Assembly (NCBI GenBank): GCA_021613535.1
Contig: CP075492.1
Span: 19,716,001-19,780,000 of the forward strand
DNA: 64,000 nt
Reading direction: 5' to 3'
Source: Adineta vaga
Taxonomy: Eukaryota > Animalia > Rotifera
A program made the translations under genes and the position numbers. Positions within the stretch are counted from its first letter, which is position 1. Each line of letters starts with the position of its first letter. Positions 54,855-64,000 of the stretch are shown one piece after another. The notes below the pieces were generated by a model. The model saw only the letters and a list, made by a program, of their open reading frames with translations, was not told where the DNA came from and made no database searches.

Positions 54855-55891
54855 AAGAAATCACCAAAGTCGTATTATATAGAAGCGTCGATAAACTCGA
54901 TCATTCTTGTGTCGGCCGAATCTATACAAAAATCGTTATATCGGAATAACGTACGAAGCGTTTGGTATATATGCAACAACGTATACAATATAAAACGAAT
55001 TCAATCCAGCTGACTATTCTTTCGATCGTTTTTTTTTCGTTCTGTCTTCTTTTCATATGTAATATGGAATCGATTCAACGTGTTTGCTGACTCTTTCACT
55101 ACTACCAAATCTTCCACGCGTTCTTATACCTAATACGAAAAAAATTCAATGCATTTACCGATTAAACTGTAACCGTTTAAATTCTCTTTCCTTTCCTTCA
55201 ACTTCTTTTTCTTATCATAACACATCACGGACGCACATCACTACCATACACAAACCATATTGTCTCCGTGTTTACTTTCTCATCCTTTTCTTCTAGGACA
55301 AAAGACATACGTCATGGATCCTGTCTTCTTTCGTTTTTCGTGTAACAACTAACCGTTGATCTATGGCTTATGCAGTAATGTTACACGAAATGAAACTGTG
55401 TTACCTAAAAAAAATATTTCGAACTAGGAGTATATATCGAACTAATCGATCGAAAAAGAAAGAAATCGGTTGTCGTTCGATAAAAATCGTGATTAATCGG
55501 TATTTTTTGTTGTTATATTGCCGTTCTACTCTTGTGCAACATCATACTACTTGATATGAAACTCAGTTTCATCGATTATATGATGGCGAATATTTATCCT
55601 TCTTATCACAACTGACTTTGATCGTAAATTGTACGGATATCTTCTTAAGATTATAAAAAAAAATACTTAAATATATGTACCATATATAATTTCTTTGAAA
55701 CCAAATTCTTTCTTTTTTATGATTAATTCGATCAGTAAGAAAAGTATGATAAGTACCTTTGCTGTTGATTTTGTAACTAGATATAATATAATAAAAAGTA
55801 GAGAAAGTGTATGTAGGCGTTGATTATGTAAAAAGGATATAAAGTCATTTATTGCAGTCAGTTTCTATTCATCAGTTTTATTCGTCGTATA

Positions 55892-56329
55892 ATGGCCACA
55901 TTGAATCTACCACCAACTTATCCCGAATCCGCAAAACCTACAGTAGGACAACCATCGTCTTCGATGATAGGAGTACAGAATGCACAACAGTTGTCGACAT
56001 ACCCTGTGGCACAATCTTACATTGTTCATCATCCGGTTTATTTTGTCGATCCTACTATCACTCAAATTCGTGATTGGTTACCATGGCCAATTATCAATAT
56101 GTTTATCGGCGGAATTTTACTCGAACTTATTCCATTAAGCTTTAGCATTATCCGTCGAAATCATAAAAGATCAAATAATGCAAGTAGTGCGAGAACAATG
56201 AGCACATTGGCTCTCGTCTTCAATATCCTTATCACATTGATTGGCCTTGCTTTGTGGATTACACTCATCGTTCTTCTTGTTCAAGCCAATCGAGTTATCA
56301 CCACGTGCCTTACTTATCCATATTGTTAA
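55892..56329 (+). CDS. CD225/dispanin (IFITM-like) membrane protein
   Basis: Pro/Tyr-rich N-terminus; IRDWLPW...; two hydrophobic segments separated by a basic loop (...A...S..AL..N); intronless. Confidence 0.65.
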   Translation: MATLNLPPTYPESAKPTVGQPSSSMIGVQNAQQLSTYPVAQSYIVHHPVYFVDPTITQIRDWLPWPIINMFIGGILLELIPLSFSIIRRNHKRSNNASSARTMSTLALVFNILITLIGLALWITLIVLLVQANRVITTCLTYPYC

Positions 56330-56749: not shown

Positions 56750-57134
56750 ATCGATGTGAAGCTAGCACGAAGGAGCTAGCACGAACAAGCGATATGTTAG
56801 GTAAAAACTTTTTTACTAAGTATGTCCCGTCCATGGAAACTACACCGTTCGACTCAGAATTTAATTCTGCATCGAATGGTGGCACTTTTATTCACCGGAC
56901 AAACTTTGGAAAAATTCTATCTGGATTATAAATAGACCTAAAGGAAACGAACAAAGATATAGATAGAAAATTTTCCAAAGTTTGTCCGGTGAATAAAAGT
57001 GCCACCATTCGATGCAGAATTAAATTCTGAGTCGAACGGTGTAGTTTCCATGGACGGGACATACTTAGTAAAAAAGTTTTTACCTAACATATCGTTTGTT
57101 CGTGCTAGCTCCTTCGTGCTAGCTTCACAACGAT
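56750..57134. mobile_element. MULE-type fold-back MITE (385 bp)
   Basis: Near-perfect TIRs of about 170 bp; 9-bp TSD ATCAAGTCG (56741-56749 and 57135-57143). Confidence 0.9.
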
Positions 57135-57712
57135 ATCAAGTCGTGTAGCGATTGTCAATGAACAATGTAAATTATCTTCAATTCATTGATTTGTTTCTTT
57201 TAAAAGGAAAGAGTGTAGTCGAAGCTTGAACAAGTGCAATCTATACTTTTTCGAGTACGAACAAAAATTCCACTCTTTCGACATTTAAATGGTCTTTATG
57301 CAGCGATTTGCTTATCTGAATTCAGTCGAGGATATTGTCGTTGTGGAGAACCATTAGATAGTGAATTAAACGAAACATATAGTACAAAAAACGTTGAGAT
57401 TCCTATGATCGACAAAAAGGCTTATTGATGTTACTAAATAAGAACACAAAGTGACATGAGTTACGACTTTCATTCCACTTTATTTTCATTGGTCTTCTCT
57501 CTCGAATTTCGCTGTTTTCTTTATATCTGAAGTTAAAAGTATTATCTCGAAGACGTGCGCAAAAACGTGGTTATTCTTTTCACAAATATATCCACATTCA
57601 CCCCGAAAAACTAATTTTCCAATGTGCTGATTGATTTACTTTTATTGTAATTAGCAAATCACTTTATTTTCGTGACAGAGCAAAAGTGATATTTTAGTAC
57701 TTCGTATGACAT

Positions 57713-58629
57713 TTAATTTTTAAATTTGAAATCATCAACGTCGCAGGTGAATTTATTTCTGTTATAATGAAGTTCAATTGAGCGTCCACTCGAGAGGGGG
57801 TAATTGAATCTCATCTTGTACCAGCCTGGTTCTGGCCATGCCGAGTCACCGATTGTCGAAATAGGTTCACCATAATCTGATGCAGTTATAGCACTACGAA
57901 GTGCTATTTGCTCATTAAGATCTTGAGGAGTGCTTCTACCCGTTGATTTTCGTCCAAGTGGTAGTCGCCCATTTGATGAACATGATTCCTCTACAAGAGC
58001 GTAATCAAAATATGTACGTACTTTTACAGAAATGAATTCTTGGGACACTAGTTGAACTTTCAGTTGTAGTTTGTTAAACTTCGTATTGTGCAGAACGTAG
58101 CGTCTCTGATAATTCTATACTAGTTTTTGTTTTAAAAATATGAAAGCTAGCGTCTGACGATGATGGATATCAATCTTCCATATGTATCAGTACGTTAAGC
58201 TTAAACAAATATGTGAAATGAAAAACGAATAAACTAGAACTTCTTTTATCATTCTTGTCCTGTTGTTCATTTTATGAAAAATAAATTGATAGTGTGTGAA
58301 CACACCTTCAGGATCGTAATGTAAACTCACCATTATATTCATTGAGCATACTGATTCCATAGCTAACCAAAGCACCAACACCAAAAGCTGCATCCAAAGC
58401 CAAATATACTGGAGGAGCCAAAGCCATACCCGCATATGGTGCTAAGGCTATAGCAGCTGGCATTCTCAGCATAGACCCTTTGCTCGCTAGTTCTGTTTGC
58501 TTCTCGTATGCATGGATAAGTGTTGGCGAGAGAAGAAGAGCGACGTAAAACCTATATTTAGCATGAAGTTAAAAGAATATTCATAGTTCAAATGCAATCC
58601 AACTCTTACCATACTAGATTGTAAATCAT
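57713..58629 (-). CDS. Predicted secreted protein with a bacterial polymorphic-toxin-like C-terminal domain
   Basis: Exons 58629-58610, 58551-58331 and 57990-57713 splice in frame (172 aa). Signal peptide MIYNLVWFYVALLLSPTLIHA; hydrophobic Ala/Gly segment; STGRSTPQDLNEQIAL...GDSAWPEPGWYKM...IELHYNRN...DDFKFK. Confidence 0.6.
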
Positions 58630-60068
58630 TTTTGACTGTAGAATGAGTGTAAGCTGGAAGTGGAAGAATACTCGACATTCCTCCGTATAAATAGGGAATT
58701 TTTCTCTTCTCTTTAAAATAAAGCAGATAATAGTAAAGCAAACATATATTCAATTTTCTGTAGATTAAGAATAGATACGTCTGTCTGTTATATTTCAATC
58801 GACTTTCGTAGAAAAAAAATCATTTGATATGAAATTGAAAATTTTCGAAGGAAACCAAATGACAGTGTTTAGCTCTGGGTACGAATGGCATAATTCATGA
58901 CGCGTTTCATCGGTTCCCTGGATTAAAAGAGATACTCATATGTACATATAGTCTATTATTCTCATTGGTTTACTTGGTCTAATCATTTGGCTTACTGCTA
59001 GGCAGGCCACTATAGCATTATTCTTCGGAACGACTCTGTTTTGGAAAAACAATGCAGAAAAATATTAATTAAAGTTATAATATTACCTGATTAAAACGTA
59101 TTCACTTGACTATATTGAGTAAAATTCTAACAATTCTTCATGAATAGACGGTTTTTTTAAACATTGACATCAAGCTTTCTTCGAAAACTTTCAATTTCAT
59201 AGCAAATAATAGATTTTTTCTACTATATTTGATTGAAACACAATACACAAGCATTTATTCTTAATCTGCAATAAATGGAATACATGATTTATTTTCAAGA
59301 GAAAAGAAACAATTACGCATTAATTTTCATGATGACGTAGGATATCTTAGTATAAGAGTCGAGTTTTTTGAACTGCGATTCGCGACAGAGACGTTTCCAG
59401 GTGGATCTCGACGAGCTCTATCGATTCCATCAGTCATTTTCCAGTTTTGAGTCAAGCATCATTAAGAAAAATGCTAATTACGTCACCATGCATTGTAGTA
59501 AAATATGGCAACATCAACCATTGGCTCATTCAATTCAGCCAATAAAATAGACAAAACAAGAACATGGTCTTTTCTCTACACCAATAATTTTGTGTATTTG
59601 TTCTATGTGCGAGTAATGTGGATCAGAATTTTTTCTTTTCCTCAAAGCAGAACACTTGCAGAGAGTGAGGTAAGTCTCTTACTTGATTTTACAAAAAACT
59701 TACTATTGCCCGTTCGCAGGTGAAAGTTTGACAGAAGGGTAATCGAGGTCGAGGAATCTGAAGCAATGGCTATTGAGTGTAGAAAACGTTTTTTCAAACA
59801 GAAAACCAGTTCAAAGCTCCTGTTAAAAGATTTTTGCTCATAAATTTTGTAAAAAATGATCTTTTTTCCAAATGAAGAATGTGGCTGAAAAGGTTTCTCA
59901 TGAATGATTACTGTAGTAGAGAGAAATTTGTTTTTGATTAGTAAAACTCTTTTGTGTCGAATTTCGAACAGACATTTATCCAAGAAATTGTAATCAACTT
60001 TTGCGGGAAGATATCGTGTGAAGAAAGGTTCTGTAAATAGATAGTCACTCTTTCACATACTTCTACAA

Positions 60069-61606: not shown

Positions 61607-64000
61607 TTGCAATGAACAGCATGAAGAAATCAACAGAAAATGTGGATATTGAGGAAACTATAGAAGCCGTAGAACAGATGGGACGATTCTCTCATACACA
61701 CAGTAAGTAATCATTCATCTTCAGAATTAACGCTATCTTTTCTTACAGCACCAAATCAAATTTTGATAAATGCATCGTTTGCTGATAATTATCAGCCGAT
61801 AACACCATTTGTTCCTTCAACATCTGATCTCGTTCGACTCAATACTAAACAGCAAGAATAACTGAAAGCTGAAAGAGAGCGAGTTAGACGAAATTTAATC
61901 ACTGGTAAACATTATAAAATAGACGACGAGTCGAATATTGACGATATGGAAGACACAGTTGTAACACTGATAAATTCAACTAGTTCAAATATGAACATGT
62001 CTGATAATTATAACTCAATTCTTCCCGTTGCTTCAGTAACAAGTACAACATATTGTAACCAAAAGACTATTGCTGATCAATATACACTAAATAGAGAGCA
62101 AAAAGCTGCATTCATGATAATCACAAGTCACCTTGATGGTGACAAACCGTCACGCACAGGTATGTTCATGCACATGGTTGTATATAATCATAAACTGAAA
62201 AATATTATTCATATAGGAGACAACAATGGTCAACTCATCATGTGTATACCCAGATGTGGTGGTACAGGAAAATCACAACTTATTCGTGCTGTGACTGAAT
62301 ATTTTCGTGTTACAAACAGAATACAAAAGATGCGAAAGCTAGCACCTACTGGAATTGCAGCCGCTGAAATTGGTGGTATGACTATCCATTCATTCTTAGG
62401 TGAACAACGCAATTAGGGGTGGCACTTTAACTTTACTTTCAAAATTAAAGTTAAAGCAAAATACTTTAACTTTAAATTCAAAGTTAAAGTATTTTACTTT
62501 ATTACTTTAACTTTAATTAAAGTACAGGAAAAAATCGAAAATATTTTTTAGCTTGCCCTGTTTAATTTTATGCGGTTTTTGACAAAAATTTTCAACTTTC
62601 AACTTTAACTTTAATAAAGTTTAAAGTTACTTTAACTTTAATTAAAGAAATTTTAAAGTTGTAATTATTATCCAAAACCACATAAAATTAAACAGGGCGG
62701 GCTAAAAATATTTTCGATTTTTTATTGTACTTTAATTAAAGTTAAAGTAATAAAGTAAAATACTTTAACTTTAAATTTAAAGTTAAAGTAAAAACTTTAA
62801 ACTTTAAGCACTTTATAAAGTAAAGTTAAAGTTAAAGTGCCACCCCTAAACGCAATTCTGGAAAGCCACGAACTATTAAACCAGGCGACTTGAAACTTGA
62901 AAAAGAATGGACACTTGTAGAATATCTCTTGATTGATGAAATGAGTATGGTTGGTCTGACTTTACTTGGAAAACTCAATCGAATTCTTTGTGCCGCTAAA
63001 CATGCCGATCCTCAAATTCCATTTGGTGGTATAAATGTTATATTCTTTGGTGATTATTTACAGTACCGACCCGTATACGATGCCCGTTACACACTGACTT
63101 TTCGCCGGAAAATAAAAAGAAATTCAACTACGTGTTGCACGTTCTTTAATTCTACAAATTAATTGTGTGGTCAAACTTACTCAACAGATGCGAACTGAAG
63201 ACCTACGATATCTTCAGTTACTTGAACGACTTCGTCAAGGTCAATGTAGTTATGAAGATTATGAATTACTATTGACGCGCGTTGTGGGACAGCCAACCGT
63301 ATCTCTTCGTGAACCGCCATGGAATCAAGTAAGATATATTTCTCTACTCTAAATGAACATATTTTCTATGTTCTTTTTTCTTTTAGGCTCTCATGCTTGT
63401 GTTTAGAAATGAAATACGAACGCAATTGAATCACAGGTCGGCAATTCATAATGCAATACAAACAGGTTGCGATCCAATGGTATGTGTTGCCCAGGACTTT
63501 TGTAAAGGTAAACCTGTTGAAGGGCCGACACTTCTTAAGAAATTATTGGAATTATCAGACAGTAAGACTGAACGCTTACCGGGTTTGTTACCGTTAGATC
63601 CTGGAATGCCGGTTATCATTACACAAAATATTGGTATTGATCTCGGATTAATTAACGGCATGAATGGAATCTTTAGACAACTAGTCTATGATCTTGACTC
63701 AGTGTCAACAGATAGTCTTTCAAAAACTTTTCCTCTAAACACCCAATATGTTCATAAGCCAATATATGCATTGGTCGAAATAGGTAAATCAAAAATTGAA
63801 TGTAATCTTAAAAATCTTCAACCAAAACTTATTCCAATACCAATAATGGAACAAACCTTTCAGGTAGACATTTCCGATATTCTTCCGAAAGTCAACAACA
63901 AATCAAAAACGAACAGAAAGGCAATGTTATCGATTAAACGACGTGCATTACCTCTTGTACCTGCATATTCTATCACAACTCACAAAAGTCAAGGACAAAC
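61607..64000 (+). pseudogene. Decayed intron-containing PIF1-family helicase (Helitron RepHel-type), running off the right edge
   Basis: LNREQ, CGGTGKS, LAPTGIAA, IDEMSM, FGDYLQ, LTQQMR, LINGMNG, AYSITTHKSQGQ; MITE insertion and frameshifts near 63085-63130. Confidence 0.85.
62414..62848. mobile_element. hAT-type MITE (435 bp) in the helicase exon
   Basis: TIR TAGGGGTGGCACTTTAACTTTA; 8-bp TSD AACGCAAT; internal CTTTAA repeats; largely palindromic. Confidence 0.93.

Follow-up and report, generated by a model that had tools for sequence, protein, structure and literature searches.

The window, by which we mean the whole 64-kb stretch of Adineta vaga DNA that was analysed, carries a three-exon gene on its minus strand. 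The exons join in frame into 519 nt encoding 172 amino acids with zero internal stops (Table 1). Exons 1 and 2 encode a predicted signal peptide followed by an Ala/Gly-rich hydrophobic segment, and exon 3 encodes a C-terminal domain. The surroundings are eukaryotic and transposon-rich, with CD225, PLAT, and FG-GAP genes, retrotransposon reverse transcriptases, a PIF1 helicase remnant, and inverted-repeat elements.

Table 1 Features of the gene and its neighbourhood, in window coordinates
Feature	Position	Strand	Observation
5′ untranslated stretch	58630..58704	-	Contig coverage, from 58649 (X1, X13) or 58704 (X12)
Exon 1: start codon and first 6.7 codons of the predicted signal peptide	58610..58629	-	Translation and contigs
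Intron 1, 58 bp, GT-AG	58552..58609	-	Spliced out in X1, X12, and X13 (three of four runs in the first comparison)
Exon 2: remainder of the predicted signal peptide, short polar stretch, Ala/Gly-rich hydrophobic segment	58331..58551	-	
Ala/Gly/Pro-rich marginally hydrophobic segment, residues about 37-76	58344..58463	-	Hydropathy
Intron 2, 340 bp, GT-AG	57991..58330	-	Spliced out exactly in five of eight runs
Exon 3: linker, toxin domain, stop codon	57713..57990	-	Translation and contigs
The only two cysteines, C84 and C163	57743..57982	-	Both kept in A. ricciae
S8-BECR3 domain, exon-3 residues 10-90, helix and four strands	57719..57961	-	Profile E 2.3e-26; AlphaFold2 mean pLDDT 91.5; ortholog in published alignment
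Candidate catalytic residues K139, H155, and K169 (exon-3 58, 74, and 88)	57725..57817	-	On three successive strands
3′ untranslated stretch with two AATAAA hexamers	57641..57712	-	Contigs extend to 57670-57676
CD225/interferon-induced transmembrane-like gene	55832-56329		Convergent with the toxin gene; E 2e-5, under Pfam's cut-off
MITE-like inverted repeat	56750-57134		167-nt arms, 98% complementary; about 580 bp beyond the stop codon
Decayed inverted-repeat element (about 76%)	58735-59294		Begins about 100 bp upstream of the start codon; likely promoter region
Broken PIF1 helicase (Helitron-like)	61862-63700		Inverted-repeat element inserted at 62413-62849

Eight public runs contain contigs that match the gene. 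The contigs have no RNA label on record, and expression level, strand, and transcript ends are not readable from them; despite the missing label, the joints at both GT-AG introns indicate that they are transcripts. The 340-bp joint is present in X1, X12, X13, X3, and X8, which come from four studies, and the 58-bp joint in three of the eight runs, each from a different study. Contigs from X5 and X7 contain exon 3 only, and an X14 contig runs unspliced into intron 2. Individual contigs in X1 and X13 run through exons 1 to 3, which ties the signal exons to exon 3 with no additional exon in use, and no contig in any of the eight runs contains an extra exon from intron 2. A preliminary description, made from the sequence alone, had drawn the same three exons, spliced in frame to 172 residues, and had warned that intron 2 might hide small exons containing stops, so that the copy could be decaying. 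The contigs bear out the gene structure and do not support the warning, since they skip exactly 340 bp; the differences from the A. ricciae ortholog, which avoid the conserved core, also speak against decay. The three-exon Adineta gene is real, intact, and spliced.

The database record for this gene, UJR12881.1 (I4U23_017055), is the 172-aa protein extended at its N terminus by 56 residues, which are supplied by a predicted exon at 60187-60062; in run X8, part of that exon matches a repeated sequence whose ends are loose. The extra residues would bury the signal peptide, a point against the preferred explanation given below. No contig in four runs joins the predicted exon to the gene, an absence that alone is no evidence. 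We prefer the short start because the X12 contig continues unspliced to 58704, beyond the acceptor that the long model requires (the X1 and X13 contigs begin at 58649), because the reading frame upstream of the start codon meets a stop and contains no ATG, and because the A. ricciae model begins at the same Met. The upstream exon of UJR12881.1 is probably mis-joined.

The A. ricciae ortholog, CAF1301102.1 (P0002), also has 172 residues, of which 11 differ, only three of them within residues 22-81. Two further copies were encountered. The protein P0004, encoded on a 1.2-kb contig, is a 60%-identical Adineta-type copy that keeps the C-terminal Cys and the K/H/K residues and has a core worn elsewhere; from its sequence it is possibly a paralog or a decaying copy. 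Run X8 contains a divergent spliced allele over window positions 57785-57924, with eight non-synonymous and one synonymous base change in exon 3 (p=0.69, not significant).

The exon 3 domain and its bacterial relatives

S8-BECR3 has been described as a polymorphic-toxin domain and a predicted RNase (Li, Tan and Zhang 2022, PMC9424270). A motif search of published supplements identified the exon 3 domain as a member: CAF1301102.1 is an uncommented row in the supplementary alignment of that paper, as are rows matching two Rotaria proteins, and the main text contains no mention of rotifers. The 85% consensus positions of the published alignment (E, D, K, H, N, and K) are all present in the rotifer copy. 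A 2026 review enters the activity of S8-BECR3 as 'Unknown' (PMC13460014, Table 1), and among literature main texts it is the only one found to use the name. None of four motifs searched for occurs in the supplements of PMC13483458.

The profile behind the E value in Table 1 was built from 52 non-Adineta relatives. Against 1.84 billion representative proteins, phmmer returns 395 matches at E<=0.001, far above chance. In 136 of the 149 listed relatives (the ortholog not counted) the closing motif lies no more than 18 residues from the C terminus; the other 13 are missed by the motif pattern, and one of these is a spurious repeat protein. Pfam delivery or pre-toxin domains, comprising PT-HINT, RHS, PT-VENN, PT-TG, LXG, hemagglutinin, T7SS signal, and DUF4280, occur in 36 of the 149 by hand count. 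The taxonomy covers 20 of these 149 relatives, among which the named eukaryotes are bdelloids, so absence from other animals is not exhaustively established.

With 12 bacterial-type relatives as the query, 80 bacterial genome loci from 12 phyla were retrieved. Across 82 loci examined, the motif is found in 74, followed by a stop within 20 residues in 73 and by an adjacent downstream ORF in 70. A single family accounts for 59 of the 70 downstream ORFs and, judged by this position, is likely the immunity protein. Its members, which follow the matches in loci L005-L084 (for example L007:3055-3465), are mostly 125-150 aa long; two of them have no Pfam match, and the family profile has no match in the PDB. 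On a Bacillus cereus plasmid (L002:370-3668), the tip ends a protein annotated as a cell-surface amidase and lies, with its likely immunity gene, between NRPS and PKS genes. A genome scan queried with the rotifer protein alone gave no match; two metagenome loci (E 6e-6 and 3e-5, 32-41% identity) were read as chance matches.

On this evidence from sequence, exon 3 is an S8-BECR3 domain, the C-terminal tip of bacterial polymorphic toxins. The preliminary description had likened a residue pattern to such toxins, and the phmmer relatives, their delivery domains, the published alignment, and the associated immunity family all uphold that likeness. It had also seen no immunity gene nearby, and the profile of the bacterial immunity family likewise finds no match in the six frames of the 64-kb window. 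Elsewhere the domain leaves few traces: neither exon 2 nor exon 3 matches a family in Pfam or NCBIfam, NCBIfam recognises no domain family among 54 aligned relatives, the PDB has no significant sequence match for the toxin domain, and phage records and viral contigs contain no match to it. In the ESM Atlas, bacterial clusters are reached at up to 0.96, with recognition below the bar. The domain had been described; its chassis in the three-exon animal gene, a predicted signal peptide and a hydrophobic segment, is new.

Predicted fold, conserved core, and immunity-protein docking

AlphaFold2 predicts a helix followed by four strands (H24-35, E41-45, E56-64, E70-78, and E84-90 in exon-3 numbering), the order by which the BECR core is defined, namely an N-terminal helix and a four-strand antiparallel meander. 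In VIA-align, RelE comes out on top (Z 5.1, rmsd 3.1, 73 aligned residues; a weak match, Z being under 8), with YoeB, HigB, ParE, BrnT, and CdiA tips just behind and RelE-family toxins filling most of the top rows. The preliminary description had expected sequence and structure searches to return bacterial toxin C-termini, possibly with an RNase fold. Bacterial toxin tips were indeed returned by phmmer, Foldseek gave no match at E<=0.001, and the suggestion of an RNase-type fold is favoured by the modelled alpha-beta4 topology and the RelE-like ranking. Since the structural scores are middling, they support the fold class and not a substrate; at that level the model supports a BECR/RNase-type fold for the exon 3 domain.

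The rotifer copy keeps 19 of the 21 columns that are at least 90% conserved among 145 non-rotifer-type rows. The two exceptions are a 92%-conserved Arg (exon-3 position 50), which is Ala, and a 92%-conserved Pro, which is Ser. The columns of K139, H155, and K169 are 99-100% conserved in the non-rotifer-type rows, and we infer that these residues are catalytic, an assignment of our own, not one read off the three active-site stars of PMC9424270.

Within the domain the A. ricciae protein differs at six residues, each of them in a variable column (mean conservation 0.23 vs 0.62, p=5e-5), and the pattern points to purifying selection acting on the core. It also bears on whether the gene is a recent acquisition that drifts neutrally or decays, or is even a bacterial contaminant. 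The eight non-synonymous changes against one synonymous in the divergent allele (not significant), the worn core of P0004, and the transposon-rich region would suit drift or decay; the two spliced introns, a frame that is open in two species, and the avoidance of the core do not. Contamination is excluded by the introns, and the eukaryotic neighbours speak against it too. We therefore regard drift, decay, or contamination as very improbable.

We then modelled the rotifer domain with a bacterial immunity protein. The ESMFold2 complex with the Kitasatospora immunity protein scores 0.77 against 0.02 for the best control, and the runs share at least 85% of their contacts, with a partner pLDDT of at least 84. 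The same mark is reached by 51 of 78 solved pairs and by 2 of 108 mismatched pairs; sequence searches returned no solved structure related to either chain. The predicted docking shows a likeness to a bacterial toxin-immunity pair, not natural binding. Its interface comprises exon-3 residues 38-45, 57, 60, 62, 68-70, 72, 79, and 90-91, and would adjoin the K/H positions provided that the strands alternate in the expected way. Four of the seven exon-3 differences between the two Adineta proteins fall on this predicted interface (p 0.026). Among variable columns only, the clustering weakens to p 0.04-0.17, so we treat it as a lead and not as evidence; a signal of an arms race is possible, and is not significant after this control.

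These observations also frame the reading that exon 3 is a folded secreted module other than an RNase, either another enzyme such as a DNase or a weak binder that acts as a decoy for immunity proteins. Such a module would accommodate the weak structural match, the lost Arg, and the retained surface predicted to bind immunity proteins, and it has precedent in the polymorphic tips PT1 and PT7, which turned out to be metal DNases. The alpha-beta4 topology and the K/H/K pattern are suited instead to BECR RNases, and every candidate catalytic residue is kept. We consider a non-RNase module improbable.

The front end and a proposed function

Residues 1-21 resemble a cleavable signal peptide by inspection, with a hydrophobic core at residues 5-15, and cleavage after residue 21 is suggested by applying the -3/-1 rule by hand. 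Both hydrophobic features that had been pointed out from the sequence, the one at the N terminus and the Ala/Gly-rich segment, are borne out by hydropathy. In the second of these, the Kyte-Doolittle average over 19 residues peaks at 2.03 at residue 51 of P0002. The insertion sum on the Hessa scale is +4.85 in the window copy and +1.05 in A. ricciae, values that describe a poor membrane anchor. From these values the segment is likely membrane-active rather than a firm anchor. The AlphaFold2 model is unreliable at residues 32-77, and pLDDT is below 50 for most of the segment.

The middle segment is 60 aa long, has no predicted strands, and is not cationic (pI 5.1); the flank that follows the hydrophobic segment is acidic (one K/R vs three D/E), and the domain has a net charge of +2, equal to the family median. 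In a word-based search with 99 candidates of 94-301 aa, the A. ricciae ortholog is the only homolog found for residues 1-85. A comparable hydrophobic stretch before the tip is present in 25 of 111 relatives, and some of these stretches are ordinary signal or membrane segments. At the C163 column, 121 of the 153 aligned rows have Gly and four have Cys, three of the latter being Adineta-type. A C84-C163 disulfide is possible and would fit secretion.

Our preferred explanation, in which our confidence is evenly poised, is a domesticated, secreted antimicrobial RNase; its activity, secretion, and target are predictions. The signal peptide would direct the protein into the ER and keep the nuclease from the animal's own RNA, and we propose that this routing makes an immunity gene unnecessary. 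After cleavage, a protein of about 151 aa (16.5 kDa), possibly held closed by a C84-C163 bond, would leave the cell for the gut or the body surface. There the Ala/Gly-rich segment may engage a bacterial or fungal membrane, or the protein may enter cells damaged by feeding, and the face formed by K139, H155, and K169 would cut RNA without metal, like other BECR toxins. Against an antimicrobial role, an RNase needs to reach the target cytoplasm, and the middle segment has no recognised homolog beyond the ortholog and is not cationic; nor does the domain, at +2, have the strong positive charge on which the diffusible ABP toxins depend. The fold match is also weak, the conserved Arg is lost, and the signal peptide was judged by hand. 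With regard to an infection response, the gene was not matched in 12 of the 16 supplements of PMC11258130.

The same conservation and the same secretion evidence would serve a digestive or scavenging RNase, barnase-like, which acts on the RNA of eaten microbes or of the surroundings and never enters live cells. The front end has no recognisable entry module and the protein has low positive charge, as such an enzyme might. A free RNase would have no need of a 40-residue hydrophobic segment, which is nevertheless kept (residues 22-81 contain just the three changes noted above), and the relatives of the domain are conflict toxins with immunity genes. This digestive role seems unlikely to us.

The hydrophobic segment bears equally on a single-pass topology, in which residues 51-73 would stop transfer and leave the domain in the rotifer cytosol as a tethered RNase for cell suicide or antiviral defence. 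The hydropathy peak and the near-neutral insertion sum of A. ricciae are compatible with such an anchor, and S8-BECR3 also tips long, cytosolic-looking DnaJ-FYVE proteins of rotifers. The window copy has an Asp inside the segment, which accompanies its higher sum, and the acidic flank contradicts the positive-inside rule. The Cys pair, specific to this lineage, would suit an oxidising compartment, and a cytosolic nuclease would be expected to sit less easily with a 64-kb window that holds no immunity gene. A tethered RNase is, in our judgement, distinctly unlikely.

If the preferred reading of a secreted antimicrobial RNase is true, an animal has solved or bypassed the delivery of a toxin into the microbial cell. 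The Adineta gene is a small, concrete candidate for a defence role of bdelloid foreign genes. It would also allow S8-BECR3, an uncharacterised family, to be tested for the first time, with the bacterial immunity protein as a ready control.

Origin and comparison with known systems

The preliminary description, which suggested horizontal acquisition, had named a phylogeny among its checks. In a tree of 153 rows and 87 columns, the three Adineta-type rows group together and are the only ones resolved (100/95), and the tree names no donor. The row nearest to them is a long rotifer-type protein, a placement that is not firmly supported (36/92). The rotifer-type rows do not form one clade in the best tree, and joining eight of them is not rejected (AU p 0.21), P0074 having been added to the eight after the tree was seen. 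All eight rotifer-type rows lack a Pro found in 135 of the 145 other rows, a pattern noticed post hoc.

The S8-BECR3 domain also tips long proteins of the DnaJ-FYVE family in Rotaria, so the transfer to the Adineta gene may be indirect. The named long proteins are from Rotaria; P0153 and P0074 were classed by similarity of their core. In our preferred explanation the domain came from bacteria, either directly or through long rotifer proteins with swapped tips.

Members of this DnaJ-FYVE-TPR family (P0153, P0160, and P0162-P0226) share a conserved core and a Gly/Ser/Asn linker but carry swapped tips at the C terminus, and are found in bdelloids, Tupanviruses, Hydra, Darwinula, Bradysia, and protist transcriptomes. 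The closing core motif is present in 51 of the 67 members, and clustering the 48 tails that reach 60 aa or more yields 26 clusters, in which some of the singletons are probably truncated gene models. The tips include S8-BECR3, Ntox8, and AHH, and one common to four bdelloid proteins has a counterpart in a hemagglutinin-repeat locus on a plasmid of the endosymbiont Candidatus Bandiella (49% identity, E 6e-11). A full-text literature search, with most subscription journals outside its coverage, found no description of this family, and under the same coverage the literature on bdelloids and polymorphic toxins consists of general papers only. The Adineta gene leads to a tip-swapping family in animals, protists, and giant viruses. 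We tentatively raise the possibility that the DnaJ-FYVE-TPR proteins are a eukaryotic polymorphic-toxin system of bdelloid rotifers, some other animals, protists, and Tupanviruses. The Adineta gene would then be a tip re-housed with a new signal peptide and membrane segment, a secreted RNase with an intracellular target that still meets immunity proteins and may be evolving away from them.

The closest known counterpart of exon 3 is S8-BECR3 as described in PMC9424270, which is the same domain and includes the A. ricciae ortholog as a row. In bacteria, according to that paper, the tip stands behind BetaH or other delivery modules and an immunity gene is present; in the rotifer it belongs to a three-exon animal gene with a signal peptide, a novel hydrophobic segment, and no immunity gene in the window. 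Bacterial polymorphic toxin systems combine a C-terminal tip with varied delivery modules, and the rotifer domain is C-terminal too. The rotifer gene is not itself such a system, since the window contains no immunity gene. At the level of fold, RelE, YoeB, HigB, and the BECR-type CdiA-CT RNases (PDB 1wmi, 2kc8, 6cp9, and 5i4q) have a helix and antiparallel sheet and are the best structural matches (Z 3.5-5.1), with 6-13% identity to the rotifer domain and scores too low for substrate or ribosome dependence to be transferred.

The ABP/AbpT toxins are Sec-exported and diffusible, with a membrane-active helix before the tip, and S8-BECR3 is among their listed tips; the diffusible ABP toxins depend on strong positive charge (PMC13460014). 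The rotifer gene, unlike these, has no recognised BetaH domain or S8 protease partner, its pre-toxin segment is not cationic, and its host is an animal. Transfer of toxin domains to animals is a known pattern, with no fewer than 14 polymorphic-toxin domains recorded from metazoans (Zhang et al. 2012, PMC3482391). The mention of Adineta vaga in that paper concerns Het-C, a different domain in a different chassis.

The nearest parallel in an animal is tick Dae2, an interbacterial toxin that was gained by an animal, acquired a signal peptide, and is a secreted antibacterial (bioRxiv 10.1101/2020.04.10.036376). The rotifer gene likewise places a bacterial toxin domain behind a signal peptide, here a predicted one, in a transcribed, intron-containing animal gene. 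Dae2, the best studied of the domesticated interbacterial toxins considered, attacks the cell wall from outside and its function is proven, whereas the rotifer domain is a predicted RNA cutter that would have to enter its target. By this analogy, the rotifer gene may work like a domesticated effector of the Dae kind, with a toxin of another class in a new chassis.
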